Notes: generated by a model not told the origin, from the sequence alone. Counted from the first letter of the stretch, positions 1,487 to 17,441 are shown. The stretch is DNA of 64,000 nucleotides from Candidatus Omnitrophota bacterium (GCA_013285735.1 JABDGZ010000002.1:5952-69951), one strand, 5' to 3'. Translations and numbers: made by a program.

Positions 1487-1489
1487 TTA

Positions 1490-2128
1490 TTATTCCGGTT
1501 TATACTCAATGGTTTTAGTTAAATCTTGAGGTGCGCTAAAATGAAGCGTTACGCTAGAATCAGAAATCGACATGACCTGAATACTATCCGTAGGGCTGGT
1601 TTTTTCTTTAACCTGAAAGTTAACACCAGCAATGGAAAGTATTGCCTCTTTTTTGACGCTATCCCCACCGATATACTCAACCTTAATTTCCGGGAAACTA
1701 TTCTTACCATCAACCGTGGTTTCTTTAAAAGCACCCATATTATCCATCTTTAATTTATTAATCTCAGCAAGGGCTTTTTCCTGTTCAAGTTCAAGATTGG
1801 TTTGTTCAAGTTTCATTTTCAAATATTTAGTTTGTTTCTGTTGTTGGCGGTCACTGTCAAGTTGTTCTTGAAGCGTGGTATCATTTTCTTTAGAAGTATC
1901 TAATTCTGACTCCCTTGTAAGCGTCCCATCCAAGGGTTGATTTTGAGTAACCGATTTTACTGAAGTATCTTTATCCGGCCCTATTTGAGAAGCAGGCAAA
2001 GTCTCAACACCTTCAGGTATAGATGAATCTGTTCTGTAAATGACCTTCCATAAAATCACTGCAATTATTAAAACAGTCAGCAGGGAAAGAATGATGATTG
2101 ATTTGACTGACAATTTTTTAAAGTCCAT
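1490..2128 (-). CDS. Pilus-assembly accessory protein, PilP/MshK-like (putative)
   Basis: N-terminal TM helix, a Q/E/K-rich coiled coil, and a C-terminal beta-rich domain (IKVEYIGGDSVKKEAILSIAGVNFQVKEK...VMSISDSSVTLHF). Lies between the PilO-like gene and the ATPase, with an 11-nt overlap with the upstream gene. Confidence 0.4.
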   Translation of the reverse strand: MDFKKLSVKSIIILSLLTVLIIAVILWKVIYRTDSSIPEGVETLPASQIGPDKDTSVKSVTQNQPLDGTLTRESELDTSKENDTTLQEQLDSDRQQQKQTKYLKMKLEQTNLELEQEKALAEINKLKMDNMGAFKETTVDGKNSFPEIKVEYIGGDSVKKEAILSIAGVNFQVKEKTSPTDSIQVMSISDSSVTLHFSAPQDLTKTIEYKPE

Positions 2129-2612
2129 ATACTTCTCCTTTAACTATTAAATTATTGGTATCTTTGTCAATTTCAGAAGCCAAAAAATCTGTGTTTTTCT
2201 CCAATAAATGAATATCGTCTAACACTGCCCCCATATCGGCCTCTTTTGAGAAATTATCGACCACGATCCTAATTTTTAATCCTCTGACACCTCTGTATGC
2301 TGTATCAACATATTGATCGGCAATATCCTTCACATCTTTAGCCCCTTCTAACTGAACATTCATATTTGTTCCGCTATAACTTTCTAATAACCTGATTTGA
2401 TTCATAACCAACCCATATTCTGTTGATAAAAGTACCGGCTCGTGTTCGACTAAAGATTCTTTATCTTTGATTTTCTGTTTCATATCAAGACTGTTGGCTT
2501 CCAACTGTGATTCTTCATCTCTTAAATTGCTGATCTGTACTCCCGTAGACATTCCCAAATTCACTAAAATAATCGACACAATAAAAGAAATAAAAATAAC
2601 TATTTTATTCAT
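2118..2612 (-). CDS. PilO/GspM/MshJ-like pilus-assembly membrane protein (putative)
   Basis: Single N-terminal TM, a coiled coil, then a small alpha/beta C-terminal domain. 4-nt overlap with the upstream gene. Call rests on operon context. Confidence 0.45.
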   Translation of the reverse strand: MNKIVIFISFIVSIILVNLGMSTGVQISNLRDEESQLEANSLDMKQKIKDKESLVEHEPVLLSTEYGLVMNQIRLLESYSGTNMNVQLEGAKDVKDIADQYVDTAYRGVRGLKIRIVVDNFSKEADMGAVLDDIHLLEKNTDFLASEIDKDTNNLIVKGEVYGL

Positions 2613-3796
2613 AGGGTTATGCTCAAATGCTTGCCGGGTTGGTTATTAACAAAAGTGTCTTTAATATCCACATTCTTTAAAATCCTTACTCTAGGAATAG
2701 GATCAAATGGTTCGCCATTATCAGCAGACAGAGATAATTCTAAATTCCAGTTGTCTGATTTAATAAATTTAAATGAATCTACTTCGTAACTTGCAGGGAT
2801 TAAATCAATAACTGCAAGGTAAGCTATCCCATAATTAAGGGATTTATGATTTCTTAGATCCTCCCGATACGTCTCTCTATCTAATAATCTTAATTTTTCA
2901 TCCAATTGCTCATTGACTTGCCGGTCCCAATCACATTGTTTGCTAATTAGCCCCCACTCAATTTTATTAAACAAAAAATAAAATAAACCAACCGCAACTA
3001 CACATAGTGAGCAAATAGTAGTTGTGACACTTTTCTTTAATTCAAAAGCTCTTCGTTTTTTAAGAATTTCCTCTGGCAATACGTACTTGATGGAAGGATT
3101 TATTTCCTTTAAACCATCTAGCGCAGGATAGGTAACATCTAAATATTCAACCGGCAACTTTTCCTCATTCTTTAAAATCTCAGCAGCTAATGCTTGATTA
3201 TTAACCACTATGAGAAATTCCGTACTTAAACGACTTAGATATTCCTCTGTCTTCTTAAAGAAGTCAATTTGAGAACGCTTGATTTCAGGTAAGATATCCT
3301 CGCCATTATTGACAATAACTCTTGTCCGGCTAAACTTTAAACCATCAAAGACTGTCAATAATTTTTCCCTACCAAGATCATCTACAAAAACAATCGTCTT
3401 ATGAAGATCGACTTTTTTATTAACAAGCGTATTGCGAAGTGCAATACCATAAGGAATAAAGGATTCAACCTTTTGAGGCCGTATTAAAGAATATACCTCT
3501 CTTACCTTCTGTTCTTTGATACCTATGACTTGAAATAAATTGTTATCAATCCGCTCATCCTGAATAATATAGGCTTCATGCTGGTAAAGTTCTTTGAACT
3601 TACGCACCAAGATACTATCTTTCTTTTCGATGGGACTTTCCACTGCAGCAGCGATAAGGACATCCACATCAACAACACAAAGATTGACTTTTTCAACGGA
3701 TTCTAGAATTTCTTTAGAATTATTGTCTCTGTTTAGACGACGGACATTGACACCATCGCTAATTAGAATCTCGTTATTAAATAATAAATAGTTCAT
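2609..3796 (-). CDS. PilM-PilN fusion-like (MshI-like) pilus-assembly protein (putative)
   Basis: ~260-aa cytoplasmic N-terminal part, one internal TM (TTTICSLCVVAVGLFYFLF), and a periplasmic coiled-coil/alpha-beta C-terminus. ATGA overlap with the secretin stop. Confidence 0.45.
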   Translation of the reverse strand: MNYLLFNNEILISDGVNVRRLNRDNNSKEILESVEKVNLCVVDVDVLIAAAVESPIEKKDSILVRKFKELYQHEAYIIQDERIDNNLFQVIGIKEQKVREVYSLIRPQKVESFIPYGIALRNTLVNKKVDLHKTIVFVDDLGREKLLTVFDGLKFSRTRVIVNNGEDILPEIKRSQIDFFKKTEEYLSRLSTEFLIVVNNQALAAEILKNEEKLPVEYLDVTYPALDGLKEINPSIKYVLPEEILKKRRAFELKKSVTTTICSLCVVAVGLFYFLFNKIEWGLISKQCDWDRQVNEQLDEKLRLLDRETYREDLRNHKSLNYGIAYLAVIDLIPASYEVDSFKFIKSDNWNLELSLSADNGEPFDPIPRVRILKNVDIKDTFVNNQPGKHLSITL

Positions 3797-5595
3797 ATAT
3801 TCTTAATCACACTTTTAGGCGTAATAATAATCACCAACTCCGTCTTTTGACTTGATCTGGCTTTATATTGAAAAGCATTTCCCAAGAAAGGAATTTTGTC
3901 CAGGTAAGGAATCCCCTGAGCCGAATTATTCTTAGTACTACTAATAAGTCCACCCAAAATCAAGGTCTTATTAGGTTCAACCCCAACATTAGTCGTAATA
4001 CTTTTAGTTGAAACCTGCGGCTCTTGGATAGTCAATCCGTTACCAACAGGAACATTAGTCATGGAATCAAGGGTGTTTACTGCTGCTGAAATATTCAACA
4101 CAGTTTTTTTGTCTTCCATTTTTGCTTCCAATCTCATTGTTAAACCATCCGAAACTTCTGAGGTAGTAACATTAGATTGCGTAACATTATTACCGATGGT
4201 TTGGCCTGTCCCTGAAATGTACGGGATACTGGTCACTTCCTGGATCACAGCTGGGAACATGTTGGAAACCGTGATCGAAGGCCTGCTGACAACATTCACG
4301 TCCCCCATGGAATCCAAAGCTTTAAGCACCATTGATACCCCGCCATTACTTGTTCCGCTTCCAGAATCCGGACCAGTCGCTGATAAGGTTAATAACTGTC
4401 CACTTAAAAATCCTGCTGAAGAAAAATTAGTCGAAGCCGTAATGTTATTAAGCCCTGCAAATTTCTTGGCAATGGTATTCCAATCAATACCGGTTTCATG
4501 ATCAGCCGACAGGGTTACTTCTATGATTTGGATCTCAAAGCTCTGTTGACGGCCTAAACTTTCATTGATTGTCGAAACCAGATCCCCAATTTTGTCTAAT
4601 ACCGCAGGCTTATCTGTCACAATAATGGAGCCGCTGACCTTATTAATAGAGTAGCTGCCAACTTCCGGTGTTATCATCGATTTCACGTTGTTCTCTAAAT
4701 CTGTCCATAGTGAAAGTTTCGGTGAACTATTTTCGTAATAAATCTTTGTCCCCACCTTAACTTGCTGGTTCTGTTGATTTGTTTGAGCGGCACTATTATT
4801 GTTACTAGTATTGTCCGCGAAAGAATCATTCGAAGTCTCATCAGAAAATGATTGGTCAACAGCAGGCATGCTAACATTAAATATCCTGGTCTCTGTTTCT
4901 GTGATGATCAAATCTTCTTGGGAAACCTTGAATCCATATCCAAATTTATAGAGAAGACTTTTCAATGCTCTCCAAACTTCAATATTTTCAAGATTAATGG
5001 ATGTTTTTTGAACATCAATATCTGGAGTTGTAATAACGTTATACCCCGTGACTTCAGAAATAGTAGAAAGGTAAACCTTAAGGGGCAGATCATTACCCTT
5101 TAATGTAATTCTCAAATTTAATGCTGAAGGCAGATTCGGGGATTGACTTTTCGTTTGGCTTACAGATTCTTTCTTCTCTATAATAGATGCAGGTAAAATG
5201 TCCATTTTAACCGCAATTGTTTTATCTTCATTCTTATCTGCAATACTTGTCATCCTATGAATGATTAATTTTGTATAAAAATTATCATTAGCCACACAAC
5301 GCAATACATAATCTTCTCCAGATATACCGCTAATCGTCATTTCTGCAGTTTCCTGGTCAGTGGGCATTAATTCCAAGGTGTCTAATTTTTTATCATTCCT
5401 TTGAATAACGTAAGTGTCTGCGCCAAAACCGCGGATAACAGCATTGATAGGTTCTGGAAAAATCACGGAAGTCATATGATCTTTCTTCACATGCACGTAT
5501 ATTTCATTGCCATCGTATACATAATCTTTTATTTCCGCGTGTGCGATTGACCCAAATAATAAAATGAAAAGAATAATAGGCGTGAATATTTTCAT
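3793..5595 (-). CDS. Secretin (PilQ/MshL/GspD family)
   Basis: Signal peptide MKIFTPIILFILLFGSIAHA. N0/N1-like modules (GSIIVTDKPAVLDKIGDLVSTIN). Canonical secretin C-domain: VVSRPSITVSNMFPAVIQ...LILGGLISSTKNNSAQGIPYLDKIPFLGNAFQYKARSSQKTELVIIITPK. Confidence 0.9.
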   Translation of the reverse strand: MKIFTPIILFILLFGSIAHAEIKDYVYDGNEIYVHVKKDHMTSVIFPEPINAVIRGFGADTYVIQRNDKKLDTLELMPTDQETAEMTISGISGEDYVLRCVANDNFYTKLIIHRMTSIADKNEDKTIAVKMDILPASIIEKKESVSQTKSQSPNLPSALNLRITLKGNDLPLKVYLSTISEVTGYNVITTPDIDVQKTSINLENIEVWRALKSLLYKFGYGFKVSQEDLIITETETRIFNVSMPAVDQSFSDETSNDSFADNTSNNNSAAQTNQQNQQVKVGTKIYYENSSPKLSLWTDLENNVKSMITPEVGSYSINKVSGSIIVTDKPAVLDKIGDLVSTINESLGRQQSFEIQIIEVTLSADHETGIDWNTIAKKFAGLNNITASTNFSSAGFLSGQLLTLSATGPDSGSGTSNGGVSMVLKALDSMGDVNVVSRPSITVSNMFPAVIQEVTSIPYISGTGQTIGNNVTQSNVTTSEVSDGLTMRLEAKMEDKKTVLNISAAVNTLDSMTNVPVGNGLTIQEPQVSTKSITTNVGVEPNKTLILGGLISSTKNNSAQGIPYLDKIPFLGNAFQYKARSSQKTELVIIITPKSVIKNI

Positions 5596-5818: not shown

Positions 5819-6868
5819 TCATGATTGCCATTCTGCCTGAAGCATTGAGGCTAAAAAACCTGCCCCAAAAGAAAAACAGGTGACAGTATCTTGGTCTTGT
5901 AATTGACCCATTAAAATATTCTTTAAAACAAATAGAACCGATGGCGAAGACATATTGCCATATTCTCTCAAAACTTGACGGGAAGGTAACATATCATCAT
6001 TCGAAAGCCCGAGACGATGTTGGATGGCATCTAAAACCTTTTTTCCACCAGAATGAAAGGCATAATGAGCATGCCCCGCCAAAGAGTCCTTATATAGGGA
6101 ATAAATGGCATTGGCCACGATCTCTGGCACCTTGGGAGAAATTACGTTACATAAACGCGCATCAAGGTATTTAAAACGTAACTCATCACGAAATTGGGGC
6201 CACAACAGTGATGAGATATTCTTTATACGCAAACCTACCATTTTAGGCTGATTAGTGAGTAAAACAGCTGCTGCACCATCTGAAAAAATAGAATTTGATA
6301 AGATAAGTTCAGGTTTCTCAGCCCAATGTGTTGCTGCTGAACAAATCTCTGTTGCTATCACCAAAACAGTAGAATCCGGATATCTATTTAAATAGTCGTC
6401 GGCTGCCCGTAAAGCTGGTAATGCGCCCGTACAGCCTAAGCCTACCAAATCCAAGGCATAAATATTTTCCTGCAAACCAAGGCGTTGACTTACATACGTA
6501 CTTAAGCCAGGACAAAGATAACCTGTACAGGTGCATACAAAAATCGCATCAATATCTTGGGGACGATAGTCCCGCTTTTTGAGAAGTTTTTGAGCAGCTT
6601 CGACGGATAAATCTACTGCCCAATGCTCAAAACGTTTCATTTTCTCATCCAGCGATTCAGCCAATAGAATCTGTGGATTGTTCCACGCAAAATACCGACG
6701 ATGAATCCCGTCATCCAATAAAAATTTCTTATAGAGATCTAACGCACGCGTTGATAGCTTCACCTGCTCAGTCAAAACAGCTAAAACTTCCTGCTGTGTC
6801 AGGCTATGCGCAGGATTAGCTGTCTCAACGTCTAGAATAATCGCTTGTGAAGACTGATTGATCGTCAT
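5819..6868 (-). CDS. Type III polyketide synthase (chalcone/stilbene synthase superfamily)
   Basis: IILDVETANP start. Catalytic Cys context FVCTCTGYLCPGLS, His context FHSGGKKVLD, Asn context GNMSSPSVLFVL, and C-terminal FSFGAGF. Confidence 0.85.
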   Translation of the reverse strand: MTINQSSQAIILDVETANPAHSLTQQEVLAVLTEQVKLSTRALDLYKKFLLDDGIHRRYFAWNNPQILLAESLDEKMKRFEHWAVDLSVEAAQKLLKKRDYRPQDIDAIFVCTCTGYLCPGLSTYVSQRLGLQENIYALDLVGLGCTGALPALRAADDYLNRYPDSTVLVIATEICSAATHWAEKPELILSNSIFSDGAAAVLLTNQPKMVGLRIKNISSLLWPQFRDELRFKYLDARLCNVISPKVPEIVANAIYSLYKDSLAGHAHYAFHSGGKKVLDAIQHRLGLSNDDMLPSRQVLREYGNMSSPSVLFVLKNILMGQLQDQDTVTCFSFGAGFLASMLQAEWQS

Positions 6869-7994
6869 GATAAATATCTTCTGTCTTTGAAACCCTTGTT
6901 TTTTGAAAAATAGTTTTTATCAAAAAAAAGCTCAGCACAGGAACGGACATACACCATTCTATAGCCCAAGGGTATTTTAAGAAGCCCTGTGCTATAAATG
7001 CCCAATGCATTTGTTTCTTCAATCTTTTCTGAATTTGTTCAACTTGAACCTTTCTATCTTTTTGGCGACAATCAAATTCATAAGCACAATTCTTAGCAGT
7101 ACTTAAAGCAATGGCCATCCCGTCACCCGTAAAAGACGGAATAACCATACGCTGATCTCCCAGGAAATATACATTTCTATGGCTGCTTTGATCACGCAAG
7201 AATCCATAGGGAATGTGGCTGATGGCACAAACCGGCTCAATAAAATCAGCTTGGTGAAAAACTGCGTCTAATTGGCGATTGGAACGGCGTAAATACGCGA
7301 GAACTGCGTCAAAATTTCCGTTTAAAGCCTTATAAATCTTTTTGTCGATAAGAAAACAGAAGTTCATTGCCTCATCTTCCACCGGGCAAATCCCTCCATA
7401 ACCTCCAGGAAATGAAAATAACGCGGTTGTTTCTTTAAATTCATGACCTTGATCCTTAAAACGGATATGGGTCTTTAAGCCTACATAAGAATTATCTTTT
7501 CCCTCGCGCTTATGCTCTTTGGAATGATCGTGTTTGCCAGTGGCTATAAACAGATAACGCGCATAAAAATCATCGGTGATTGTTTCGATCCTTATCAAAC
7601 CTTCCTCTTCTTGATGATAACTCCTCATGCATATACTTCTAAAAACATCCACCCCCGCATGCCTGGCATTATTCAAAAGTTCTTCATCAAGTTGATAACG
7701 CGACATGCCCCGGCCTGGAAAAGGAAAAGTGAATTCAACTTTCGATCGAGGTGAAGATAATCGAAAATATTTGATAACAGGGATATCATCATCTAAAAAG
7801 ATTCCCATCTCTTTAAGATACCCCAAAGCCTCAAAACTTAAAAACTCCCCACAAACCTTATGGTGCGGCCCGTTGGTTTTCTCCAAAAGAGCAACCTTGT
7901 ATCCAAGATTTATCAGATGGTATGCCGCCGTTGACCCGGCCACTCCCCCACCGACCACTACACATTCATAAAGATTTTTCATAGCGGATACCAT
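6825..7994 (-). CDS. FAD-dependent oxidoreductase/monooxygenase (geranylgeranyl-reductase-like fold)
   Basis: N-terminal dinucleotide fold VVVGGGVAGSTAAYHLINLGYKVALLEK and GD motif YFLGDQRMVIPSFTGDGM. Overlaps both neighbouring genes. Confidence 0.75.
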   Translation of the reverse strand: MVSAMKNLYECVVVGGGVAGSTAAYHLINLGYKVALLEKTNGPHHKVCGEFLSFEALGYLKEMGIFLDDDIPVIKYFRLSSPRSKVEFTFPFPGRGMSRYQLDEELLNNARHAGVDVFRSICMRSYHQEEEGLIRIETITDDFYARYLFIATGKHDHSKEHKREGKDNSYVGLKTHIRFKDQGHEFKETTALFSFPGGYGGICPVEDEAMNFCFLIDKKIYKALNGNFDAVLAYLRRSNRQLDAVFHQADFIEPVCAISHIPYGFLRDQSSHRNVYFLGDQRMVIPSFTGDGMAIALSTAKNCAYEFDCRQKDRKVQVEQIQKRLKKQMHWAFIAQGFLKYPWAIEWCMSVPVLSFFLIKTIFQKTRVSKTEDIYHDDQSVFTSDYSRR

Positions 7995-8676
7995 AACGAA
8001 AATTAGGATACCAGGAAATCTTGATATGGTCTAAATTAAATCCTGCTTGAGTGAGAAGATCAACCCACTCTTGACGTCGAAAACTGCGGGCAACGGATAA
8101 TGGCGCATCATGACAAATCAGCTGGTTAAATCTACACAGGCTATTAAAACATTTAATAAAATAGTACGCAATCATATGCCGATGAAGATCAGAAACAAAC
8201 CACCCAATACGCGCATGATCACTCATCCACTGCGTTAACTTCACGATTTCCTGATTGGTCAGATGATGCATGGTCAGCGAATTAATGATTAAATCGTAAT
8301 CCGCATTTCCATGATCGGAGAATATGTCACCATGAATAAAATTAATATCAGGAGGGCTGATTGTAACTGCTGAAGAAATAATATCAGGATTTAGATCAAT
8401 CCCTGTTAACTCTAAAGAGAAACTCCTGGTACACCCATCATCGTGAATACGTCTAAGGATTTCACCATCCCCGCATCCTATGTCCAAAATCTTTATTTTA
8501 CGATTGGAGCCGTACCGCTTTAAAAAATACGCAACCGCACGCATCGTCGGCCAATAACCAAGAGTATAAACATTGATACTCTTTATTTGTTGATAGGTTT
8601 GTCGCAATGTCCCCGTATCCACCTGAGGATCATCGATGCATTCCTTGGCATGACTGCGATGCTCTAATCGAATCAT
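7966..8676 (-). CDS. Class I SAM-dependent methyltransferase
   Basis: Motif I ILDIGCGDGEIL; post-I acidic residue and LIINSLTMHHL. Confidence 0.8.
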   Translation of the reverse strand: MIRLEHRSHAKECIDDPQVDTGTLRQTYQQIKSINVYTLGYWPTMRAVAYFLKRYGSNRKIKILDIGCGDGEILRRIHDDGCTRSFSLELTGIDLNPDIISSAVTISPPDINFIHGDIFSDHGNADYDLIINSLTMHHLTNQEIVKLTQWMSDHARIGWFVSDLHRHMIAYYFIKCFNSLCRFNQLICHDAPLSVARSFRRQEWVDLLTQAGFNLDHIKISWYPNFRYGIRYEKSL

Positions 8677-8694: not shown

Positions 8695-9177
8695 CTACCT
8701 TGTTCTTTGTTCAAGCTCAAGAAGGTATTGTTTCATGGGAATCCCACCGCCATACCCACCAATGGCACCATCAGAAGCAATAACCCGATGACAGGGAACA
8801 ATAATACAGATTGGGTTTTTTCCATTCGCTGTACCTACAGCCCGGACAGCTTTTGGATTCTTAATCTTCCGAGCAATGTCCTTATAAGATACCGTCTTAC
8901 CGTAAGGGATACGGGACAATTCATTCCACACCTTCACCTGAAAATCAGTACCTAAAAATTTAAAGGCAAGATCAAACGTCGTTCTTTTTCCTGCAAAATA
9001 TTCTTCAAGCTGCTTAACAACATTGCTTAATATTTTCTCTGCTGGTTTCTCTCGATCCAGGATTTTGACCAATTTTACTGGCTGCTTCGTGAAAAATATA
9101 CCCTGCAAACCATTAGGTGACGCCACCAGATATAACGGCCTGACCTTTGATTTCATTTCATATTGAACTTTATCCAT
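8695..9177 (-). CDS. ogt: Methylated-DNA--protein-cysteine methyltransferase
   Basis: Active-site IVPCHRVI and the helix-turn-helix region YGKTVSYKDIARKIKNPKAVRAVGTANGKNP. The gene ends in TAG (8695-8697). Confidence 0.9.
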   Translation of the reverse strand: MDKVQYEMKSKVRPLYLVASPNGLQGIFFTKQPVKLVKILDREKPAEKILSNVVKQLEEYFAGKRTTFDLAFKFLGTDFQVKVWNELSRIPYGKTVSYKDIARKIKNPKAVRAVGTANGKNPICIIVPCHRVIASDGAIGGYGGGIPMKQYLLELEQRTR

Positions 9178-9274
9178 TTATTACCCCCTTCTTAATTACA
9201 AAAGAATACACCATTTAAAACAAAAGGCATAGCCATAAATCTTGGCGGTGCCTTTTTAATATAATTCCAGAATA

Positions 9275-10309
9275 TTATGAAGTCAATCCACGCTGTGCCT
9301 GTCGTTGGGGACGCCAGACGCTTAAATATTGTGCTAGAAAGTACGAGCCAATCACTAATACGAGGGAAAAAACTTGAGCCAAAAGGCTTTCGGCTGATGG
9401 GTAAATCGCAAACCAAACGTTAAGCCAGCCTGGCATATTGATATTAAGGGTCGTGGTCCCAAGCCAATTAGCCTGCTGCATTTCTTGCACGCTTTCACCA
9501 ACCATGACGATCAAGACCATCCCAAGCATAATTCCCGTCAGCACAAGCATCTTGCGATACGGAAGTTTATGGTGGGCAACAAAGGTAATGACAGCCACCA
9601 TGGCTGTCAGTATCAAACCAATCACTACACCTTCAAGTACCACGGCCGTACCTGCTTTGAGCCGTAAACTTTGCAAAAATAAGACAACTTCAAAGCCTTC
9701 ACGGTAGACTGAAGTAAATCCGACAAGTACCAATCCCTTAAAGATAACTGAAGTAGGCTTGGAACTATTAACGATATCCTGCTTACGCTGATTGTGGTGA
9801 GATATCCATCCGGTCCAATAAATTTTATGAAAAAACCAATTCATAATGACCAAAAGGACGATGATGGCGAGTAAACCAGTACCTGCTTGAATATCTAATT
9901 CAGGAGCATTAATATTAGAGATAATGCCCACCACAATAAACCATGTGGCCACACTGGCTAAAAATGAAAGCCCTGCGCCCAAACTAACCGGCTTCCAATA
10001 GTCTTGAGTAGTCCGCACCAAACTTGCCGTTAACGCTGCAAGCACAAGGATTGCTTCCAGCCCTTCACGGAAGACCAGGATACCTGTGTCCATCACCACC
10101 GCAAATTTACTTAAGTGATTGTTCGTTGGGTCAGGATTACCAGATGCCGTCAGGCCTTGCCAAATAAGGGCCGCAAGTACGGAAACACCCATGATGACCA
10201 AAGAAATATTGATCACAGTTTTCCAGGCCCGGCTTTGCGGCTGGCCCTGGACCTGTAGTACAGAATCAATAATTTCTTCTTCGTTTTTTTCTATCATCGT
10301 TTCTTTCAT
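9275..10309 (-). CDS. FTR1/EfeU-family high-affinity iron permease
   Basis: Two REXXE motifs in TM helices (REGLEAILV and REGFEVVLF); polytopic. Confidence 0.85.
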   Translation of the reverse strand: MKETMIEKNEEEIIDSVLQVQGQPQSRAWKTVINISLVIMGVSVLAALIWQGLTASGNPDPTNNHLSKFAVVMDTGILVFREGLEAILVLAALTASLVRTTQDYWKPVSLGAGLSFLASVATWFIVVGIISNINAPELDIQAGTGLLAIIVLLVIMNWFFHKIYWTGWISHHNQRKQDIVNSSKPTSVIFKGLVLVGFTSVYREGFEVVLFLQSLRLKAGTAVVLEGVVIGLILTAMVAVITFVAHHKLPYRKMLVLTGIMLGMVLIVMVGESVQEMQQANWLGTTTLNINMPGWLNVWFAIYPSAESLLAQVFSLVLVIGSYFLAQYLSVWRPQRQAQRGLTS

Positions 10310-10357
10310 GGTATGAAGAGTTTCCCATTCTAACTTATCCAGGACAAAATTTCAAAA

Positions 10358-11101
10358 TTAAAATTCGTACTCAAGCACCCACTTTATTTCTCCTCGGGGA
10401 GCCGCATCAGATATGCCAAATAAGTAACCAACATCATAATTGACATGCCCGAACAAATGACCGTAAAAGCACGGGCCCACCTGATGGCTTTGTTGATTAT
10501 AATCAAGCTGGTGAGAAATCGCGCTAAAATCGTTCCAATACTCGAAACCAGGTTCGAAATACTGAAACAGACGATATTTAGTGCTCCACGATATCCCGCC
10601 ATCAGTATGCGTATCAGCGCCTCCACCGACCTCTTTATTAAAACTAATGTTTAGCGTATTGGAAATCTTCTGAAAATCTTTTTCCAACAGTATTTTACCT
10701 TCAAACTGCCCTACCTGTTTATTGATAAGCGGCGCCTCATAAGCCAAATAAATCCCTGGATCCACCCAATATTCTCCCTTGGGAGCTAGTTGAAAAATAT
10801 TTTCCCACTCCATATGAGTGGCTTGAAACTTAGTAATAGCATCATCTGTTGGCTGAGTTTCTGTTTCAAGTTCTAATTCCGTATGCCAAAAACTGTTTAC
10901 TCCGTAACCCACCGAGTAATGATATTCTTGTACAGCATTCTTATCCTTATGAGGATCAGAATCATACAATCCTGTACTTTCAAGCTCCCATTCCCCTTCC
11001 TCGGCGTTAGGCGAAAAAACGTCCTTTTCAGCATAAGCAGGATGAGATAAACCAATGGCACATAAAAAAGCAATAGTGGTTAACGTAACTTTTAACTTCA
11101 C
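10358..11101 (-). CDS. Putative outer-membrane beta-barrel protein
   Basis: Signal peptide ending HPAYA/EK, alternating aromatic-rich beta-strand pattern, and the C-terminal ...WVLEYEF typical of OMPs. Sits between the cupredoxin and FTR1 genes. Confidence 0.45.
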   Translation of the reverse strand: MKLKVTLTTIAFLCAIGLSHPAYAEKDVFSPNAEEGEWELESTGLYDSDPHKDKNAVQEYHYSVGYGVNSFWHTELELETETQPTDDAITKFQATHMEWENIFQLAPKGEYWVDPGIYLAYEAPLINKQVGQFEGKILLEKDFQKISNTLNISFNKEVGGGADTHTDGGISWSTKYRLFQYFEPGFEYWNDFSAISHQLDYNQQSHQVGPCFYGHLFGHVNYDVGYLFGISDAAPRGEIKWVLEYEF

Positions 11102-11129
11102 TTAAGACCTCCTGTTTATATTTGTAAAA

Positions 11130-11155
11130 GATTCCCGCTTATCAAGGGAATGACA
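11130..11155. repeat. Hairpin repeat family 1 (GGATTCCCGC...GCGGGAATGAC type), degenerate copy
   Basis: gattcccgcttatcaagggaatgac; intergenic between the cupredoxin and OMP genes. Confidence 0.6.
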
Positions 11156-11172
11156 AGTAACGTAGTAAATAT

Positions 11173-11508
11173 TTATTGAGCAACAATAACACCTGTGGAA
11201 CTTTTATGAAAATCCGCCCAATACTTATACGTTCCTGGCTGTAAGGGCCCCAGATAAACAATCATTTTTTTATTGCCTTCTACGACCTGTTCACGGTCTA
11301 AGTCAAAACTTTCAAATTCTTCTGGCGTTGGGTCTTGATTATCAACTGTTACCTGAAGCTTTTGGCCAGCAGCGACCGTTAATTGGGCTGGATCAAATTG
11401 ATGATTCTTAATCACAATGGTATTAGGCGCCTGAGTTTCAGCCAAAGACAAAACCGGCAACCAAACACAAACACCTAAAACTAAATAAACAATCAGACGA
11501 ACAACCAT
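11173..11508 (-). CDS. Cupredoxin-like periplasmic protein (FtrB/EfeO-N-like)
   Basis: Signal/TM MVVRLIVYLVLGVCVWLPVLSLAE, then a single beta-sandwich (IVIKNHQFDPAQLTVAAGQKLQVTVDNQD...GTYKYWADFH). Start moved from 11556 to the ATG at 11506-11508, which has AAGGAG 6 nt upstream. The longer ORF start lies inside a hairpin repeat. Confidence 0.65.
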   Translation of the reverse strand: MVVRLIVYLVLGVCVWLPVLSLAETQAPNTIVIKNHQFDPAQLTVAAGQKLQVTVDNQDPTPEEFESFDLDREQVVEGNKKMIVYLGPLQPGTYKYWADFHKSSTGVIVAQ

Positions 11509-11530
11509 GACATTCTCCTTAAGTAGCTTA

Positions 11531-11554
11531 TCATTCCCGCAAAAGCGGGAATCC
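11531..11554. repeat. Hairpin repeat family 1
   Basis: tcattcccgcaaaagcgggaatcc; 8-bp stem, 4-nt loop. Creates the spurious MDSRFCGND extension of ORF 11173-11556. Confidence 0.8.
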
Positions 11555-11592
11555 ATTAAAATTTTTTATACCCTAATACGTTATTATTTACC

Positions 11593-11820
11593 TTATTTAA
11601 TCCCTTTCTTTTTCCTTACGGGCAATTTACTCTTCCAACCTTCTCCCAAACAACTGGAACAATCCGAAAGCATCTGTTCATACGGCACCAGGCATATTTG
11701 CTTGCTGCGGGGACATTTTAATTCATAGCCCTCTCTAGTCTTAATATAGAGCAGCTTGCCGGCGTCGGATCTTACTTCCGTGATCTTCTCCCCGTTTCTG
11801 GTAATAATTTTTTCTTTCAT
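11593..11820 (-). CDS. Hypothetical small protein
   Basis: ORF only. Four Cys (C-x6-C ... C-x2-C) and a basic tail. No recognisable family. Confidence 0.3.
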   Translation of the reverse strand: MKEKIITRNGEKITEVRSDAGKLLYIKTREGYELKCPRSKQICLVPYEQMLSDCSSCLGEGWKSKLPVRKKKGIK

Positions 11821-11976
11821 ATTCTACGGAAGAAATAAAAAGCCCTACTTCTGGTTTAGAAAAGGGCTCTGGATGCAAGATCGCACGCCTCTGTTTATCC
11901 AATGATGTAACTAAGTCGACTTACGACTTAGTTTAGTAATTTATTTTATTTTGTCAAGAAAAAAACTTAAGCAGAT

Positions 11977-12357
11977 TTAAAGGCGTGCTATCCATAATAA
12001 AAAACTAGGGATCATAATCCCCATCAACAAACAACCCCAAACAATCCATCCTTGGGCATACTTAAAGGCCATGATAATACCTAATATGGTCGTGGCCAAT
12101 ACTCCCACTGACATCAAAACAATCAACCACTGCAAAGGCACTGATGGCTGAGGAACCATTGCCCTGTCAACCCATCTCTGATTTTTATGAACTTGTGAAA
12201 GTGATTTGATAATTGCAGGCGGCTCGTAGCTGCCGTCTTCGCTAGCGTGATTCAAATTAAATGTCTGCCAAGATCCGCTGATGATGAAAAAAAGAAGCAA
12301 TGGGGCGAAAAAAACTCCTAAATACAGATGTATACTTCTCATCACTTTAATATTCAT
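11977..12357 (-). CDS. Small membrane protein, PepSY-associated-TM-like (putative)
   Basis: MRSIHLYLGVFFAPLLLFFIISGSWQTF resembles the PepSY_TM/PiuB helix signature. Two to three TM segments. Confidence 0.35.
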   Translation of the reverse strand: MNIKVMRSIHLYLGVFFAPLLLFFIISGSWQTFNLNHASEDGSYEPPAIIKSLSQVHKNQRWVDRAMVPQPSVPLQWLIVLMSVGVLATTILGIIMAFKYAQGWIVWGCLLMGIMIPSFLLWIARL

Positions 12358-12489
12358 AATCTAACCAACTTTTTGTCTGCCTCATCCTTATATACATTCC
12401 GTTATTGAGCGTCGAATTATATCTAAGAATCGGATTTAAGGAAAGAATTATATGTAAAGGGACTTTTACATGATAACCTATAAGAATAT

Positions 12490-14364
12490 ATGCCTAAACT
12501 GACTGTTGATAAAAAAACTTTGCCTCATGCTGGCCTTACTCTTGCAGCCCTTGGAATTGTTTTTGGTGATATCGGAACCAGCCCGCTGTATACCTTAAAA
12601 ACCGTTCTTGATCTTGCCGGCGGAAAGGCAACACCCGAAGCTGCGCTGGGGCTTGTATCCCTTATTATCTGGACGCTGTTAATCACTGTATCTCTTAAAT
12701 ATGTGACCTTTGTGATGCGGGCTGATAATAACGGCGAAGGCGGCATCATGGCGCTGATGTCCTTGCTGAGACAGCATAAACATCATCGCCCTGTGATCAT
12801 TGCCCTTGGACTTTTTGGAGCGGCACTTATCTACGGCGATGGCGCCATCACACCAGCGATTTCGGTACTATCAGCTATCGAGGGCTTGAAAATAGCAGCC
12901 CCGGCGATGACGCCCTATGTTTTACTAATTTCGATTGCTATTCTTCTTACTCTGTTTGCTTTTCAATCGCAAGGAACCGCACGGATTGGGGGTGTTTTTG
13001 GACCTGTGATGACTGTATGGTTTCTTGTCATTGGCATTTTGGGCCTGTGGGGTATTGTGCAACATCCGGCTGTGCTTGCAGCTTTTAACCCTTGGTGCGG
13101 ATTCCATTATCTCCTCACTAATGGGGCAAAAGGTTTTTTAGTTCTTGGCGGTGTCTTTCTGGCTGTAACTGGGGCCGAAGCGCTTTTTGCTGACATGGGG
13201 CATTTTGGCGCAAGCCCTATTCGTTTGGCGTGGTATGGACTAGTCTTGCCTTCCTTGATCTTGAATTATACAGGGCAAGCAGCCTTACTGATGTCCGGCG
13301 GCCCGGTCAGCGATAACATTTTCTATCAATTATGCCCTGCACCTCTGCTTTTACCCTTAATTATTCTTGCCACCGTAGCCACTGTTATTGCCAGCCAGTC
13401 GATTATCACCGGAGCCTATTCCATGACACGGCAGGCCATTCAACTTGGGCAGTGCCCACGCCTGAAGATCACACAAACATCGTCGGAAGGTTACGGTCAA
13501 ATCTATATCGGCGCTGTGAATTGGATATTGATGATTGTCACGATAGGAATAACTTGTTTTTTCGGCAGTTCAGATCGTTTGGCTGCTGCCTATGGCATTG
13601 CGGTGTCCTTGACCATGCTGCTGACAACAGCACTACTTTTTGTGGTGTCACGAGAAGTCTGGAAATGGAATCTTTTAGTCAGTCTCGCAGTCACAGGCAC
13701 ATTTTTCTGCATTGACGCGGCTTTTTTTAGTGCGAATTCCTTAAAAATCCTGGATGGCGGTTGGGTACCACTGGTTCTTGCTATCGTAATTTATACAATC
13801 ATGTTGACCTGGCGACGGGGTTATGTTGCCTTGACAAAAGGGATATACTCCCTGGCCGTACCTGTTAATGATTTTATCACGTACCTTAAAACTACAGCTG
13901 TACACCGTATTTCCGGCACCGCCGTATTTATCACCAAGACAACCGAAAAAACGCCGCCGATTATCGTCTGGCAAGTCACTTTTAACAAGGTGTTGCATGA
14001 GCATGTTATTGCGCTCGCGGTTGTTACCACTCAAACTCCTTGGGTTGAAGAGGACAAAAGATTCACTGTTGAGTGCCTTGCCCCCAATTTTTGGCGGGTG
14101 ATTGGGTTTTACGGTTTTATGGAGAAACCAGATATTCCGCTGCTTTTAGAGCAGATAAAAAAACATGGATGTAATCTTGATTTAAGTGATATCGTTTATT
14201 ACGTCCCGCACGAAACCATCCTGCACTGTACCCAAGGCACCGGATTACCCTTATGGCAAGAAAAAATCTTCGCCTTTCTCCTGCGCAACTCGGCGCAAAT
14301 CGATGAGTACTTAAACTTGCCGCGTAAATCTGTGATCGAGGTTGGCAGGCAGATCGAAATCTGA
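12490..14364 (+). CDS. kup: KUP/HAK/KT potassium uptake transporter
   Basis: Hallmark GIVFGDIGTSPLYT near the N-terminus, 12 TM segments, and a cytoplasmic C-terminal domain. Confidence 0.9.
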   Translation: MPKLTVDKKTLPHAGLTLAALGIVFGDIGTSPLYTLKTVLDLAGGKATPEAALGLVSLIIWTLLITVSLKYVTFVMRADNNGEGGIMALMSLLRQHKHHRPVIIALGLFGAALIYGDGAITPAISVLSAIEGLKIAAPAMTPYVLLISIAILLTLFAFQSQGTARIGGVFGPVMTVWFLVIGILGLWGIVQHPAVLAAFNPWCGFHYLLTNGAKGFLVLGGVFLAVTGAEALFADMGHFGASPIRLAWYGLVLPSLILNYTGQAALLMSGGPVSDNIFYQLCPAPLLLPLIILATVATVIASQSIITGAYSMTRQAIQLGQCPRLKITQTSSEGYGQIYIGAVNWILMIVTIGITCFFGSSDRLAAAYGIAVSLTMLLTTALLFVVSREVWKWNLLVSLAVTGTFFCIDAAFFSANSLKILDGGWVPLVLAIVIYTIMLTWRRGYVALTKGIYSLAVPVNDFITYLKTTAVHRISGTAVFITKTTEKTPPIIVWQVTFNKVLHEHVIALAVVTTQTPWVEEDKRFTVECLAPNFWRVIGFYGFMEKPDIPLLLEQIKKHGCNLDLSDIVYYVPHETILHCTQGTGLPLWQEKIFAFLLRNSAQIDEYLNLPRKSVIEVGRQIEI

Positions 14365-14373
14365 GTGTTAATC

Positions 14374-15555: not shown

Positions 15556-15558
15556 GGT

Positions 15559-16902: not shown

Positions 16903-16943
16903 CTATTATTGATATACTGTCTCATAATTATTTCAAAAAAAAT

Positions 16944-17441
16944 TTATACTTCCTTTAACTGACAATCCTTACAAATTCCATAAAAGTGCATTTCATGGCC
17001 TAAAATTTTAAAACCCTGTTTTTCCAAATATTGATGATAAATCTTATCTTCCTTCCTATCCGGAAATTCAATAAAATTGTGGCAGCGGATACATTGGGCG
17101 TGGTGATGGGGCTTCTCATCATAAACATGTTCAAAATGGCGGTGCTTGTCTCCAAAGGCGGTTTCACGGATAATACCAGCTTCTAATAAGTCATTCAGCA
17201 CACGAAAAACAGTTGGCCTGGAGACTTTTAGTTTCTTCTGTAAGCATTCTTTGACGAGTTCTTCCGCCGTAAAATGCCCATGTGAACGCATAACCTCATC
17301 AAAAATAATCTCCCGGCCGTGACTTACCCTGCGTCCAGCCTTGGCTAAATGACGCAAAAATTTGGCGCGTTCATTCTCAATCATTTGTAGATCAACCTTT
17401 AGCATATGAGATACTGTATCATTAAGAAAAAAACAAGTCAA
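16944..17441 (-). CDS. Fur-family metalloregulator
   Basis: Winged-helix region (VSRPTVFRVLNDLLEAGII), HHHAQCIRCHNFIEF and ICKDC metal sites. The true start may be the internal MLKVDLQ at 17408. Confidence 0.85.
   Translation of the reverse strand: MTCFFLNDTVSHMLKVDLQMIENERAKFLRHLAKAGRRVSHGREIIFDEVMRSHGHFTAEELVKECLQKKLKVSRPTVFRVLNDLLEAGIIRETAFGDKHRHFEHVYDEKPHHHAQCIRCHNFIEFPDRKEDKIYHQYLEKQGFKILGHEMHFYGICKDCQLKEV

Follow-up and report, generated by a model that had tools for sequence, protein, structure and literature searches.

Organization of the locus

The window, by which we mean the whole 64,000-nucleotide stretch of DNA that was analyzed, carries on its minus strand three overlapping genes that are read in the order methyltransferase (MT), FAD-dependent oxidoreductase (FAD), and type III polyketide synthase (PKS). 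A preliminary description had reported a trio of these enzyme classes with overlaps of 29 and 44 nt. The ORF listing exactly reproduced its coordinates (Table 1), with overlap lengths counted from the first ATG of each ORF, and the class assignments are supported by both Pfam and NCBIfam. A ribosome-binding site, GGGAGAAGG, is located a few nucleotides 5' of the ATG of the MT gene. The FAD gene has a second ATG at position 7982 that is a possible start codon, and the corresponding Met5 is conserved at 90% or more in the family alignment; use of this codon would shorten the first overlap to 17 nt. Inspection of the start contexts revealed no clear Shine-Dalgarno sequence at either ATG of this gene. 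The three genes are probably cotranscribed and translationally coupled.

The trio is flanked by unrelated genes, ogt on one side and a pilus secretin gene on the other. The ogt gene is probably cotranscribed with the trio, and a promoter-like site is present upstream of it (9286..9258). It lies outside the conserved cassette and was not found beside the trio in L006 or L013, two of the genomes considered below. Neither a ligase gene nor an acyl carrier protein (ACP) gene was found adjoining the trio.

Table 1. Coordinates of the genes, overlaps, and sequence motifs at the locus
Feature	Coordinates	Strand	Basis or remark
ogt (methylated-DNA-protein-cysteine methyltransferase)	8695..9177	-	Pfam and TIGR00589; 18 nt upstream of MT start
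Class-I (Rossmann) SAM-dependent methyltransferase (MT), 236 aa	7966..8676	-	Pfam Methyltransf_25/23/31/11/12
SAM-binding glycine-rich motif LDIGCGDG, MT residues 64-71	8464..8487	-	Translation; start of Methyltransf_25 match (residues 63-154)
MT/FAD gene overlap	7966..7994	-	29 nt, or 17 nt if FAD start is 7982
FAD-dependent oxidoreductase, 389 aa (385 aa if ATG 7982 is the start)	6825..7994	-	Pfam DAO, NAD_binding_8, FAD_binding_3
FAD-binding GxGxxG (GGGVAG), flavoprotein residues 15-20	7935..7952	-	G15, G17, and G20 invariant in 38 sequences
Flavoprotein signature K46-V-C48-G49-E50	7845..7859	-	K46, C48, G49, and E50 invariant in 38/38 sequences
FAD/PKS gene overlap	6825..6868	-	44 nt; encodes low-confidence C-terminal tail of flavoprotein
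Type III polyketide synthase (PKS), 349 aa	5819..6868	-	Pfam Chal_sti_synt_N/C, FAE1_CUT1_RppA
Catalytic Cys146 codon (GLGC motif)	6431..6433	-	Invariant in 29/29; aligned with Mycobacterium tuberculosis Pks11 Cys138
Phe232 codon, aligned with cyclization-determining Trp (ArsB W281/Pks11 W230)	6173..6175	-	HMMER alignment to Pks11
Catalytic His272 codon	6053..6055	-	Invariant in 29-sequence alignment; aligned with Pks11 His277
Catalytic Asn305 codon	5954..5956	-	Invariant in 29-sequence alignment; aligned with Pks11 Asn310

Features of the three proteins

In Pfam the MT matched class-I Rossmann methyltransferase models only, with no match to ICMT or PEMT. Against NCBIfam it was PRK06202-like, with a score of 120.6 bits that lies below the family cut-off of 243.

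The best HMM for the flavoprotein in NCBIfam was TIGR02032, which represents the geranylgeranyl reductase (GGR) superfamily; the match covered residues 9 to 302 with 102.5 bits, below the cut-off of 158.8. The Pfam FAD_binding_3 threshold was passed marginally (25.8 against 22). An AlphaFold model (pLDDT 88, pTM 0.89; pLDDT below 50 for residues 371 to 389) predicts a GGR/halogenase-like fold, and its top Foldseek matches, with TM scores of about 0.7, were flavin halogenases, the GGR Ta0516, and PqsL. GGRs are characterized by a Cys-Gly motif near the flavin and an aromatic YxWxFP motif. The K-x-C-G-E stretch of the flavoprotein occupies the place of this Cys-Gly motif and aligns with DKPCGD of the Sulfolobus enzyme (4opu). 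At the position of YxWxFP, the flavoprotein displays a second motif, GGY(G/A)G(L/I)xP(I/V)E, which contains no Trp.

The PKS exceeded the Pfam cut-offs of 27 bits for PF00195 (Chal_sti_synt_N, 59.6 bits), PF02797 (Chal_sti_synt_C, 50.5 bits), and PF08392 (FAE1_CUT1_RppA, 83.2 bits), and in NCBIfam its score for DpgA (155.8 bits) was higher than that for the best FabH model (95.5 bits). The solved structures matching best were those of Pks11, Ectocarpus PKS1, and THNS (E values of 1e-27 to 1e-26), and each of the 60 structure matches listed was either a type III PKS or one of the related 3-ketoacyl-CoA synthases (KCS) of plants, with long-chain KCS enzymes scoring nearly as high as Pks11. The protein can thus be taken as a type III PKS and not a FabH-like enzyme, and the Cys, His, and Asn residues that the preliminary description had considered intact proved invariant across the 29 aligned sequences.

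At column 232 of this alignment, 25 sequences have Phe and four have Tyr, and none has the Trp of resorcinol synthases. A Trp at this position (ArsB 281, Pks11 230) enforces aldol cyclization (PMC5916927, PMC7064976) and marks the characterized bacterial alkylresorcinol synthases ArsB, SrsA, FtpA, PKS10, and PKS11 (PMC5916927). Because the site is occupied by Phe, both a resorcinol and a pyrone are candidate products of the enzyme. Homologs with 59 to 84% identity come from Omnitrophota/PVC metagenome-assembled genomes, and in a neighbor-joining tree the PKS falls in a separate clade made up of PVC members only. Identity to any characterized enzyme is ~20 to 35% (27% to Pks11 over 276 aligned residues), so that the starter, chain length, and mode of cyclization discussed below are extrapolated.

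Conserved adjacency and relation to described operons

Genes of the three families are adjacent in at least five phyla, with differing flanks, which indicates that the MT, FAD, and PKS genes are functionally linked. The order MT-FAD-PKS is found in the PVC-group metagenome-assembled genomes L004, L013, and L006. The called genes of L013 share 11 nt (MT/FAD) and 41 nt (FAD/PKS), the FAD and PKS genes of L006 share 11 nt, and in L004 tblastn located the three homologs at nearly the coordinates seen in L013. The MT orthologs beside the PKS gene in L002, L004, and L013 are 69 to 72% identical to the protein of the window, and the L006 protein is 44% identical; for the flavoprotein, the values are 66 to 67% in L004 and L013, 39% in L006, and 38% in Paracoccus. 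L002, a close relative, has an MT-PKS pair with no flavoprotein gene, and the flavoprotein step would therefore be dispensable. The preliminary description had also considered that the flavoprotein might be a GGR with an unrelated role. The superfamily is borne out by the HMM match, whereas an unrelated role is at odds with the fact that the gene travels with those for the PKS and MT across phyla.

Independent evidence comes from a plasmid collection, in which 22 of the 24 records with a FAD homolog also carry an MT homolog, the two being no more than about 4 kb apart wherever both coordinates are listed. In these uncharacterized cassettes, found on alpha- and betaproteobacterial plasmids (Sphingobium, Novosphingobium, Paracoccus, Microvirga, and Caballeronia), the order is PKS-MT-FAD (Paracoccus, Microvirga, Sphingobium, and Caballeronia) and not MT-FAD-PKS, and some include an additional ACP and a KAS-type ketosynthase, unlike the trio described here. 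All three proteins of the alphaproteobacterial cassettes, including the MTs of Sphingobium, Microvirga, and Paracoccus, are homologous to those of the window (MT, 32 to 35%; FAD, 29 to 42%; PKS, 28 to 29%). The Caballeronia cassette has the most similar PKS of this group (35%), along with a FAD protein of 27% identity and a marginal MT match (22% over 169 residues, E value of 2.6e-6). A decayed, frameshifted copy is present in Microbacterium, where the MT and FAD were recognized with family HMMs. In the Deinococcus cassette, also ordered PKS-MT-FAD, the MT is homologous (28%), but the flavoprotein, a classical FAD_binding_3 aromatic hydroxylase (188 bits), has no match to that of the window.

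A sister PVC/Omnitrophota cassette, found in L014 and L015, has the arrangement YceI-(MMPL)-FAD-PKS-UbiE-type MT(-SDR). Its PKS belongs to the same PVC-specific clade (47% identity) and shares its motifs, including Phe/Tyr at the Trp site. Its MT, unlike that of the window, is a UbiE/COQ5-family enzyme (178 bits), and its flavoprotein conforms better to the classical FAD_binding_3 type (62 bits) and is only 22 to 24% identical to ours. Both loci carry the gene for the lipid-binding YceI protein, and L015 also that for an MMPL transporter.

The closest known system is the MT-oxidoreductase-PKS operon of picocyanobacteria (hidABC, responsible for hierridins) and Planctomycetota. In hidABC of Cyanobium sp. 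LEGE 06113 and in the planctomycetal mtr-fdo-t3pks operon, the gene order is MT, FAD oxidoreductase, and PKS, identical to that observed here (PMC10896814, PMC8086630). The planctomycetal operon, represented by Gimesia maris and Rhodopirellula baltica, includes 58 of the 96 type III PKS genes in Planctomycetota. Like the trio, these are compact three-gene units with no ligase or ACP, and two-gene MT-PKS variants occur on both sides, in S. maiorica of the planctomycetal group and in L002 of the group to which the window belongs.

The sequence comparison was carried out with the planctomycetal proteins; HidA, HidB, and HidC were set beside the trio by their published description. The G. maris sequences were frame translations of published genes, machine-read from a PDF and containing frameshifts, and against these the family HMMs of the window MT and FAD detected Mtr (E values of 1.6e-12 and 5.5e-8) and Fdo (4.4e-13, 1.1e-7, and 6.9e-7), respectively, as collinear fragments. 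A direct tblastn search matched Fdo only (28% over 104 aa). The MT and FAD proteins are therefore distant homologs of Mtr and Fdo that are detected as a pair only with family HMMs. The PKS, in contrast, lies outside the planctomycetal clade, with ~20 to 35% identity on OCR-damaged sequences and 20% to the R. baltica enzyme over 305 positions. Its active-site motif is GLGC, compared to GFMGCHG in the HidC/planctomycetal clade, in which the Trp that is replaced by Phe in the window PKS is conserved.

The preliminary description did not name this operon, which is the better match, and had instead likened the trio to srsABC of Streptomyces griseus and the mycobacterial operon, pkqABC of Mycobacterium smegmatis. 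The likeness stands with regard to the enzyme classes and the chemical logic (alkylresorcinol formation, methylation, and oxidation to a quinone), but not with regard to gene order, which is PKS-MT-oxidoreductase in srsABC/pkqABC (PMC9927152), or MT type. An srsB homolog, from an operon 51 to 63% identical to S. griseus srs, is annotated as a membrane ICMT-type enzyme (PMC6669644), whereas the window MT is of the soluble class-I Rossmann type. The PKSs of srs/pkq also possess the resorcinol Trp (PMC5916927) in place of Phe232.

Predicted product and alternative readings

We think it likely that the trio directs the biosynthesis of an aliphatic polyketide that is tailored into a phenolic or pyrone lipid; an alkylresorcinol- or alkylpyrone-type lipid, as predicted in the preliminary description, is still a reasonable expectation for the product. 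A lipid is proposed because Pks11 is the best structural match, KCS enzymes score close to it, and YceI and MMPL genes are present in the sister cassettes. Pks11 is listed among resorcinol/pyrone producers in a study that also describes Pks18 as a phenolic lipid synthase with long-chain acyl-CoA starters (PMC7064976). The PKS would be primed by a long-chain fatty acyl thioester, presumably drawn from primary metabolism because neither a ligase nor an ACP is encoded next to the trio, and would extend it with malonyl-CoA two or three times and cyclize the chain to a 5-alkylresorcinol or alkyl-alpha-pyrone. The ring would then be methylated by the MT and hydroxylated by the flavoprotein. The outcome may be a product like the hierridins or alkyl-methoxyhydroquinones, whether a methoxy-alkylphenol, a hydroquinone, or a quinone, that would partition into the cell envelope, with candidate roles as a membrane/envelope component, a bioactive lipid, or a redox carrier. 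Counting against the cassette reading are the closer relationship of the flavoprotein to GGRs and halogenases than to PHBH-type hydroxylases, the Phe/Tyr at the resorcinol-synthase Trp site in the PKS clade, the G. maris flavoprotein that gave no hydroxylated product, and the missing flavoprotein gene in L002.

Cassettes of this kind are widespread and have already been described, and the host is an uncultivated Omnitrophota-like bacterium, so the finding is a fairly ordinary one. Its PKS belongs to the uncharacterized, PVC-only clade.

A possible, though somewhat unlikely, alternative is that the PKS lactonizes its chain instead of performing aldol cyclization, that the MT O-methylates the pyrone hydroxyl, and that the flavoprotein acts elsewhere than on a resorcinol ring. 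Pyrone formation and O-methylation of the pyrone hydroxyl are known for BpsA/BpsB in Bacillus. Phe232 and the Phe/Tyr found across the clade are consistent with such a route, as enzymes that lack the Trp (ArsC with Gly, Pks18 with Leu) make pyrones (PMC7064976). However, a bulky aromatic Phe or Tyr could fill the steric role of Trp, identity in the alignment around Phe232 is low, and in Planctomycetota and cyanobacteria the partners of these MT and FAD families are resorcinol synthases (PMC10896814).

Within the phenolic or pyrone lipid pathway that we favor, the flavoprotein is presumed to be a ring hydroxylase because FAD_binding_3 hydroxylases fill the same slot in Deinococcus and the sister clade and because it marginally passes the FAD_binding_3 threshold itself. 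The planctomycetal PKS produces C15/C17 alkylresorcinols, to which the coexpressed MT and flavoprotein add one methyl group; a hydroxylated product was not seen with the G. maris flavoprotein, whose role was called unresolved in that study (PMC10896814). In the hierridin pathway, methylation is credited to HidA, and hierridin B requires one ring hydroxylation for which HidB is the sole candidate in the cluster (PMC6836626). These observations bear on a second alternative, that the flavoprotein is a reductase which saturates a C=C bond of an alkenyl side chain or reduces a quinone or enone intermediate. We regard this as rather unlikely. The TIGR02032 match, the invariant Cys next to the flavin, the structural match to Ta0516, and the G. 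maris result all point toward a reductase, as does the wording "reduction and methylation" that one paper applies to the steps of HidA and HidB (PMC8086630). On the other hand, the TIGR02032 score falls short of the family threshold, the YxWxFP motif is replaced, hierridin B calls for hydroxylation, and classical aromatic hydroxylases occupy this slot in other cassettes.

The preliminary description raised a quinone as a possible product. It is improbable that the cassette yields an alkyl-methoxy-benzoquinone for electron transport in the membrane, one that would replace or supplement isoprenoid quinones in this Omnitrophota lineage. In M. smegmatis and Streptomyces, polyketide quinones with a respiratory function arise by the same logic of alkylresorcinol formation, methylation, and oxidation (PMC9927152, PMC5916927), and the distribution of quinone pathways among Omnitrophota is patchy, with some lineages lacking them (PMC10066038). 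Moreover, a bona fide UbiE/COQ5-family MT is accompanied in the sister-clade cassettes by an aromatic hydroxylase as well as YceI. The MT of the window, however, is not of the UbiE type, and the close relative L002 lacks the flavoprotein that would be needed to form the quinol/quinone. The planctomycetal and cyanobacterial counterparts yield phenols (hierridins and alkylresorcinols) for which a respiratory role is not known (PMC10896814). No respiratory or quinone gene, including ubi and men, was found in the window, and none was linked to the cassette.

We consider it very improbable that the flavoprotein serves as a flavin-dependent halogenase of the phenolic ring, an activity that, if present, could explain the unexplained chlorination of hierridin C. 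The leading Foldseek matches were indeed the phenol/pyrrole halogenases FasV, PltM, PltA, Bmp2, and ChlB4 (E values of about 1e-21; TM scores of 0.66 to 0.75), but identities are 13 to 19% and the similarity is limited to the overall fold. A WxWxIP motif is a hallmark of flavin-dependent halogenases, as is a conserved catalytic Lys. The motif was not found in the flavoprotein, and Lys75, at the position of the catalytic residue, is shared by just 12 of the 38 family members.

That the three genes are chance neighbors with unrelated roles, as the unrelated ogt and pilus secretin genes on the two sides might suggest, has a negligible probability and is contradicted by the overlapping reading frames and by the conserved adjacency of the three families across phyla.

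Gene layout and recurrence of the cassette

Our results demonstrate that this Omnitrophota locus encodes three enzyme classes with intact catalytic and cofactor motifs, that the linkage of their genes is conserved, and that the tailoring enzymes are homologous to those of a studied system. Judged from sequence, the locus joins a previously described type of three-gene phenolic-lipid cassette as a new member, located in an uncultivated phylum and carrying a polyketide synthase (PKS) of a divergent clade. The genes are transcribed in the order methyltransferase (MT), FAD protein, type III PKS. The ORF listing matches exactly the three ORFs and coordinates of the preliminary description as well as its overlaps of 29 nt (MT/FAD) and 44 nt (FAD/PKS), counting from the first ATG of every ORF. 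The MT gene has the ribosome-binding site GGGAGAAGG, and the FAD gene could start at either of two ATGs, 7994 or 7982, with a clear Shine-Dalgarno sequence at neither. Because Met5 of the flavoprotein is the conserved start methionine in the alignment of homologues, the gene may begin at 7982, and the MT/FAD overlap may be 17 nt. The flavoprotein ends in a disordered C-terminal tail (residues 371 to 389, pLDDT <50), which is encoded in the 44-nt overlap, and the corresponding junction in L013, an 880-kb Omnitrophota contig, overlaps by 41 nt.

Between the PKS gene and the downstream pilus secretin gene lies a 223-nt gap with promoter-like sites. A consensus scan for promoters and terminators gave a site count no higher than in shuffled controls, a terminator-like site at 5881-5858 was rejected as lying inside the PKS coding region, and an Rfam scan of the whole window returned zero matches. 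On the other side, ogt and the MT gene are probably on one transcript; the linkage of ogt to the trio is not kept in relatives.

Coordinates of the three cassette ORFs (from the ORF listing), of other features in the window, and of variant cassettes in other loci
Feature	Sequence	Position	Strand	Remarks
MT ORF	Window	7966..8676	-	236 aa
FAD protein ORF	Window	6825..7994	-	389 aa
PKS ORF	Window	5819..6868	-	349 aa
ogt (O6-alkylguanine-DNA alkyltransferase)	Window	8695-9177	-	Stop 18 nt upstream of MT start
Type IV/MSHA-like pilus cluster	Window	1-5595, on into L005	-	Secretin, T2SSE ATPase, T2SSF, N-methyl pilin
Metal-uptake block	Window	9275-17441		FTR1-type permease, 247-aa protein without Pfam match, cupredoxin, Kup potassium transporter (+ strand), OprB porin, Nramp, Fur
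Bacterial serpin, full-length	Window	28705-29922	-	Pfam Serpin, E 3e-119
Three ORFs in a row	Window	32824-37089		430, 217, and 768 aa, without Pfam match
MR_MLE enzyme	Window	45962-47041		Adjoins NlpC/P60 and DUF819
Giant ORF	Window	48436-57495	-	3019 aa; class-I methyltransferase (~477-565), Peptidase_M3 (1451-1883, E 7e-73), response-regulator receiver (2774-2891)
957-aa ORF	Window	60959-63832	-	Sole match SMODS-associated NUDIX domain, 24.8 bits against Pfam cut-off of 25
Two-gene variant (MT-PKS)	L002	5248-7035		MT-PKS gap ~48 nt
Sister-clade cassette	L014	4255-8633		
Sister-clade cassette	L015	1909-7952		
Plasmid cassette (Caballeronia)	L009	8216-9732		PKS-MT-FAD joined to ACP and KAS-type ketosynthase
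Plasmid cassette (Sphingobium)	L012	1719-3151		PKS-MT-FAD joined to ACP and KAS-type ketosynthase

The MT-FAD-PKS order recurs with wholly different flanking genes in three loci of PVC/Omnitrophota relatives: L013; L004, where tblastn places three homologues in the same order; and L006, an 8.8-Mb contig in which the PKS, FAD protein, and MT are 59%, 39%, and 44% identical to those of the window. In an Omnitrophota metagenome-assembled genome (L002, PKS 77% identical), MT is followed directly by PKS, with no flavoprotein gene. Loci of a sister PVC clade (L014 and L015, PKS 47% identical) have the order YceI-(MMPL)-FAD-PKS-MT(-SDR), in which a bona fide UbiE/COQ5-family enzyme takes the MT position and the flavoprotein is of the FAD_binding_3 hydroxylase type.

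PKS-MT-FAD cassettes were also found by tblastn of 72,556 plasmids. In those from Sphingobium, Paracoccus, and Microvirga, each of the three proteins has its homologue in the window (MT 32-35%, FAD 29-42%, and PKS 28-29% identical), and Novosphingobium plasmids have homologues of MT and FAD too. The PKS of Caballeronia is the most similar (35%), and it comes with an FAD protein of 27% identity and a marginal MT match (22%, E 2.6e-6); Deinococcus has a homologous MT (28%) and a flavoprotein without a match to the window's; and Microbacterium has a frameshifted cassette in which the family HMMs recognize MT and FAD. An MT homologue is present in 22 of the 24 plasmid records that have a flavoprotein homologue, within ~4 kb wherever both coordinates are given. 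The preliminary description had named, as a case against its reading, a flavoprotein that acts as a geranylgeranyl reductase in an unrelated role; this concern is not upheld, as the FAD, MT, and PKS genes recur together across genera. The ACP and KAS genes in the Caballeronia and Sphingobium cassettes suggest a dedicated supply of starter units, which is missing from the window cassette.

Enzyme families and relation to known systems

The PKS scores above threshold in Pfam for the two chalcone/stilbene-synthase domains as well as for FAE1_CUT1_RppA, and its NCBIfam score for the type III enzyme DpgA is above that of every FabH model. The top solved structures are Mycobacterium tuberculosis Pks11 (E 1.9e-27), Ectocarpus PKS1, and Streptomyces coelicolor THNS. 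The domain scores and structure matches exclude a FabH/KAS III identity, for which the preliminary description had suggested a check. The classes that it assigned (MT, FAD oxidoreductase, type III PKS) agree with the domain matches, and the Cys/His/Asn contexts that it regarded as intact correspond to Cys146, His272, and Asn305, which align with the Pks11 triad and are invariant across 29 homologues.

The nearest PKS homologues (59-84% identity) come from metagenome-assembled genomes. Named genomes with the nearest PKS or flavoprotein homologues are Candidatus Omnitrophota/Omnitrophica or "PVC group," and some close-relative contigs carry the label uncultured Planctomycetales. A PKS identical to that of the window is recorded from a 146-kb contig. 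These affiliations place the source in the PVC superphylum, with Omnitrophota as the most likely phylum. As a PKS search of genome contigs gave four close relatives only, taxonomic breadth was assessed in the protein database, in the contigs that encode the hits, and in the plasmids. Over full alignments, the PKS is 20% identical to the R. baltica enzyme, 27% to Pks11, and 35% to the Caballeronia enzyme. A crude neighbor-joining tree, built with partial PDB sequences taken from alignments and indicative only, places it in a PVC-only clade, apart from a group of R. baltica, alphaproteobacterial, and Deinococcus enzymes; the motif TCTGYLCPGL is invariant in this PVC-specific clade.

The MT, whose SAM motif is LDIGCGDG, belongs to the class-I Rossmann enzymes, and its top NCBIfam model, the unnamed PRK06202 family, scores under the cut-off. 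The flavoprotein carries GxGxxG and GD motifs, and full-length homologues in the nearest relatives are 56-80% identical. Its top model is TIGR02032 of the geranylgeranyl-reductase superfamily (102.5 bits versus a cut-off of 158.8), with weaker scores for the QhpG, LodB, and halogenase models. An AlphaFold model from 38 homologues (pLDDT 88, pTM 0.89) has as Foldseek neighbors the phenol/pyrrole halogenases FasV, PltM, PltA, and Bmp2, the Thermoplasma geranylgeranyl reductase Ta0516, and PqsL, all at TM ~0.7 and 13-19% identity. The halogenase reading that this ranking offers is ruled out by motifs: WxWxIP is absent from the flavoprotein, and Lys occupies the halogenase position in 12/38 family members. 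Invariant in the family are K46, C48, G49, E50, S53, E55, G153, K154, Y199, G201, G279, D280, and Q281, and its invariant motifs are K-x-C-G-E, A-T-G-K-H, and G-D-Q.

The trio had initially been likened to srsABC and the mycobacterial operon. This holds for the enzyme classes, which srsABC and pkqABC, the Mycobacterium smegmatis operon whose cluster is homologous to srs (PMC5916927), share with the window, but not for gene order or methyltransferase fold. The order in srsABC/pkqABC is PKS-MT-oxidoreductase (PMC9927152), and an srsB homologue, from an operon 51-63% identical to the Streptomyces griseus srs operon, is annotated as an isoprenylcysteine-carboxyl-methyltransferase type (PMC6669644), a fold that differs from that of the window MT. 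Membership in srsABC/pkq is excluded on these two grounds, and the likeness is one of analogy because the window MT has a different fold.

A closer match is the hierridin cluster hidABC of Cyanobium, which encodes the methyltransferase HidA, the FAD oxidoreductase HidB, and the type III PKS HidC (PMC10896814, PMC6836626, PMC8086630). The same three-gene operon is found in Planctomycetota, where 58 of 96 type III PKS genes lie within a methyltransferase-oxidoreductase-PKS operon (PMC10896814). Plain tblastn against the planctomycetal genes gave fragmentary matches for the PKS and the flavoprotein Fdo and none for the methyltransferase Mtr. The Gimesia maris sequences from the supplement of PMC10896814 were machine-read and frameshifted, and identities are therefore approximate. 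HMMs from each window protein and six syntenic homologues, run on frame translations of the G. maris genes, matched both Mtr (E 1.6e-12 and 5.5e-8) and Fdo (E 4e-13, 1e-7, and 7e-7). By profile similarity, the window MT and FAD protein are of the same families as Mtr and Fdo, because these HMMs match both in collinear pieces. In contrast, the window PKS does not group with the planctomycetal enzymes in identity (24-44%, in fragments only), tree position, or active-site motif, which is GLGC as in Pks11 and GFMGCHG in the planctomycetal enzymes.

Proposed pathway and product

In the pathway that we propose, the PKS would draw a fatty acyl thioester out of primary metabolism, extend it with malonyl-CoA, and cyclize it, the MT would methylate the ring, and the flavoprotein would hydroxylate it. 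HidA methylates 5-pentadecylresorcinol in vitro (PMC6836626). We infer the hydroxylase role from the logic of HidB, the sole candidate in its cluster for the one ring hydroxylation needed for hierridin B (PMC6836626); from the classical aromatic hydroxylases that occupy the flavoprotein's slot in Deinococcus and sister-clade cassettes; and from the FAD_binding_3 score of the window flavoprotein, which marginally exceeds the threshold. This role is countered by a Cys motif like that of geranylgeranyl reductases and by a negative experiment with G. maris, in which co-expression of Mtr and Fdo added one methyl group and the role of Fdo was left unsettled (PMC10896814).

Several lines support a lipidic product. 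Long-chain KCS structures score nearly level with the top-ranked Pks11, which is among the resorcinol/pyrone producers, and Pks18 is a phenolic lipid synthase started by long-chain acyl-CoAs (PMC7064976). The planctomycetal operon products are lipids, and a lipid/isoprenoid-binding protein has been described by Milke et al. for the "S. ferox" operon (PMC10896814); YceI and MMPL genes accompany the sister cassettes. The Trp at ArsB-281/Pks11-230 is reportedly conserved in the characterized bacterial alkylresorcinol synthases ArsB, SrsA, FtpA, PKS10, and PKS11, and where it is missing (Gly in ArsC, Leu in Pks18) pyrones are formed (PMC5916927, PMC7064976). Aligned to Pks11 by HMMER, the window PKS has Phe232 at this position, and the clade has Phe in 25/29 members and Tyr in 4/29. 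The residue is a bulky aromatic yet not the diagnostic Trp, which leaves resorcinol and pyrone both as candidate products.

It is possible that the product serves as an electron carrier. Isoprenoid-quinone pathways are patchy in Omnitrophota: UbiA is present in over half of the genomes of Omnitrophia and Aquiviventia, some Velamenicoccia have menaquinone genes, and some lineages have no such pathway; polyketides go unmentioned in that study (PMC10066038). At the window locus this function is unsupported, and a search of the ~50 longest ORFs of the window for ubi, men, respiratory, ligase, and ACP genes found none; the MR_MLE enzyme, judged by its NlpC/P60 and DUF819 neighbors, is more probably a dipeptide epimerase than MenC. 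The electron-carrier reading gains somewhat in appeal for the sister clade, whose methyltransferase is UbiE-type. The make-up of L014 and L015 looks more quinone-like than the window trio. We consider it very unlikely that the Phe/Tyr PKS clade and the flavoprotein paired with it yield a structurally new redox-active phenolic lipid that acts as a membrane electron carrier in ultra-small Omnitrophota without a complete isoprenoid-quinone pathway; the flavoprotein family would then be neither a standard hydroxylase, reductase, nor halogenase.

If the phenolic-lipid assignment is true, uncultivated Omnitrophota members make tailored phenolic or pyrone lipids, and the cassette is common to cyanobacteria, Planctomycetota, Proteobacteria, Deinococcota, and Actinomycetota, with gene orders shuffled and tailoring enzymes swapped. 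The locus contributes a PKS clade and a flavoprotein family, both uncharacterized, to a pathway in which the oxidative step is unsettled even for the hid and planctomycetal systems. Its practical value is modest.

Other features of the window

The giant ORF is an unusual fusion, and Pfam matches are missing over most of its length. The pilus cluster has a G+C content of 0.34-0.38, versus 0.40-0.46 in the remaining window.
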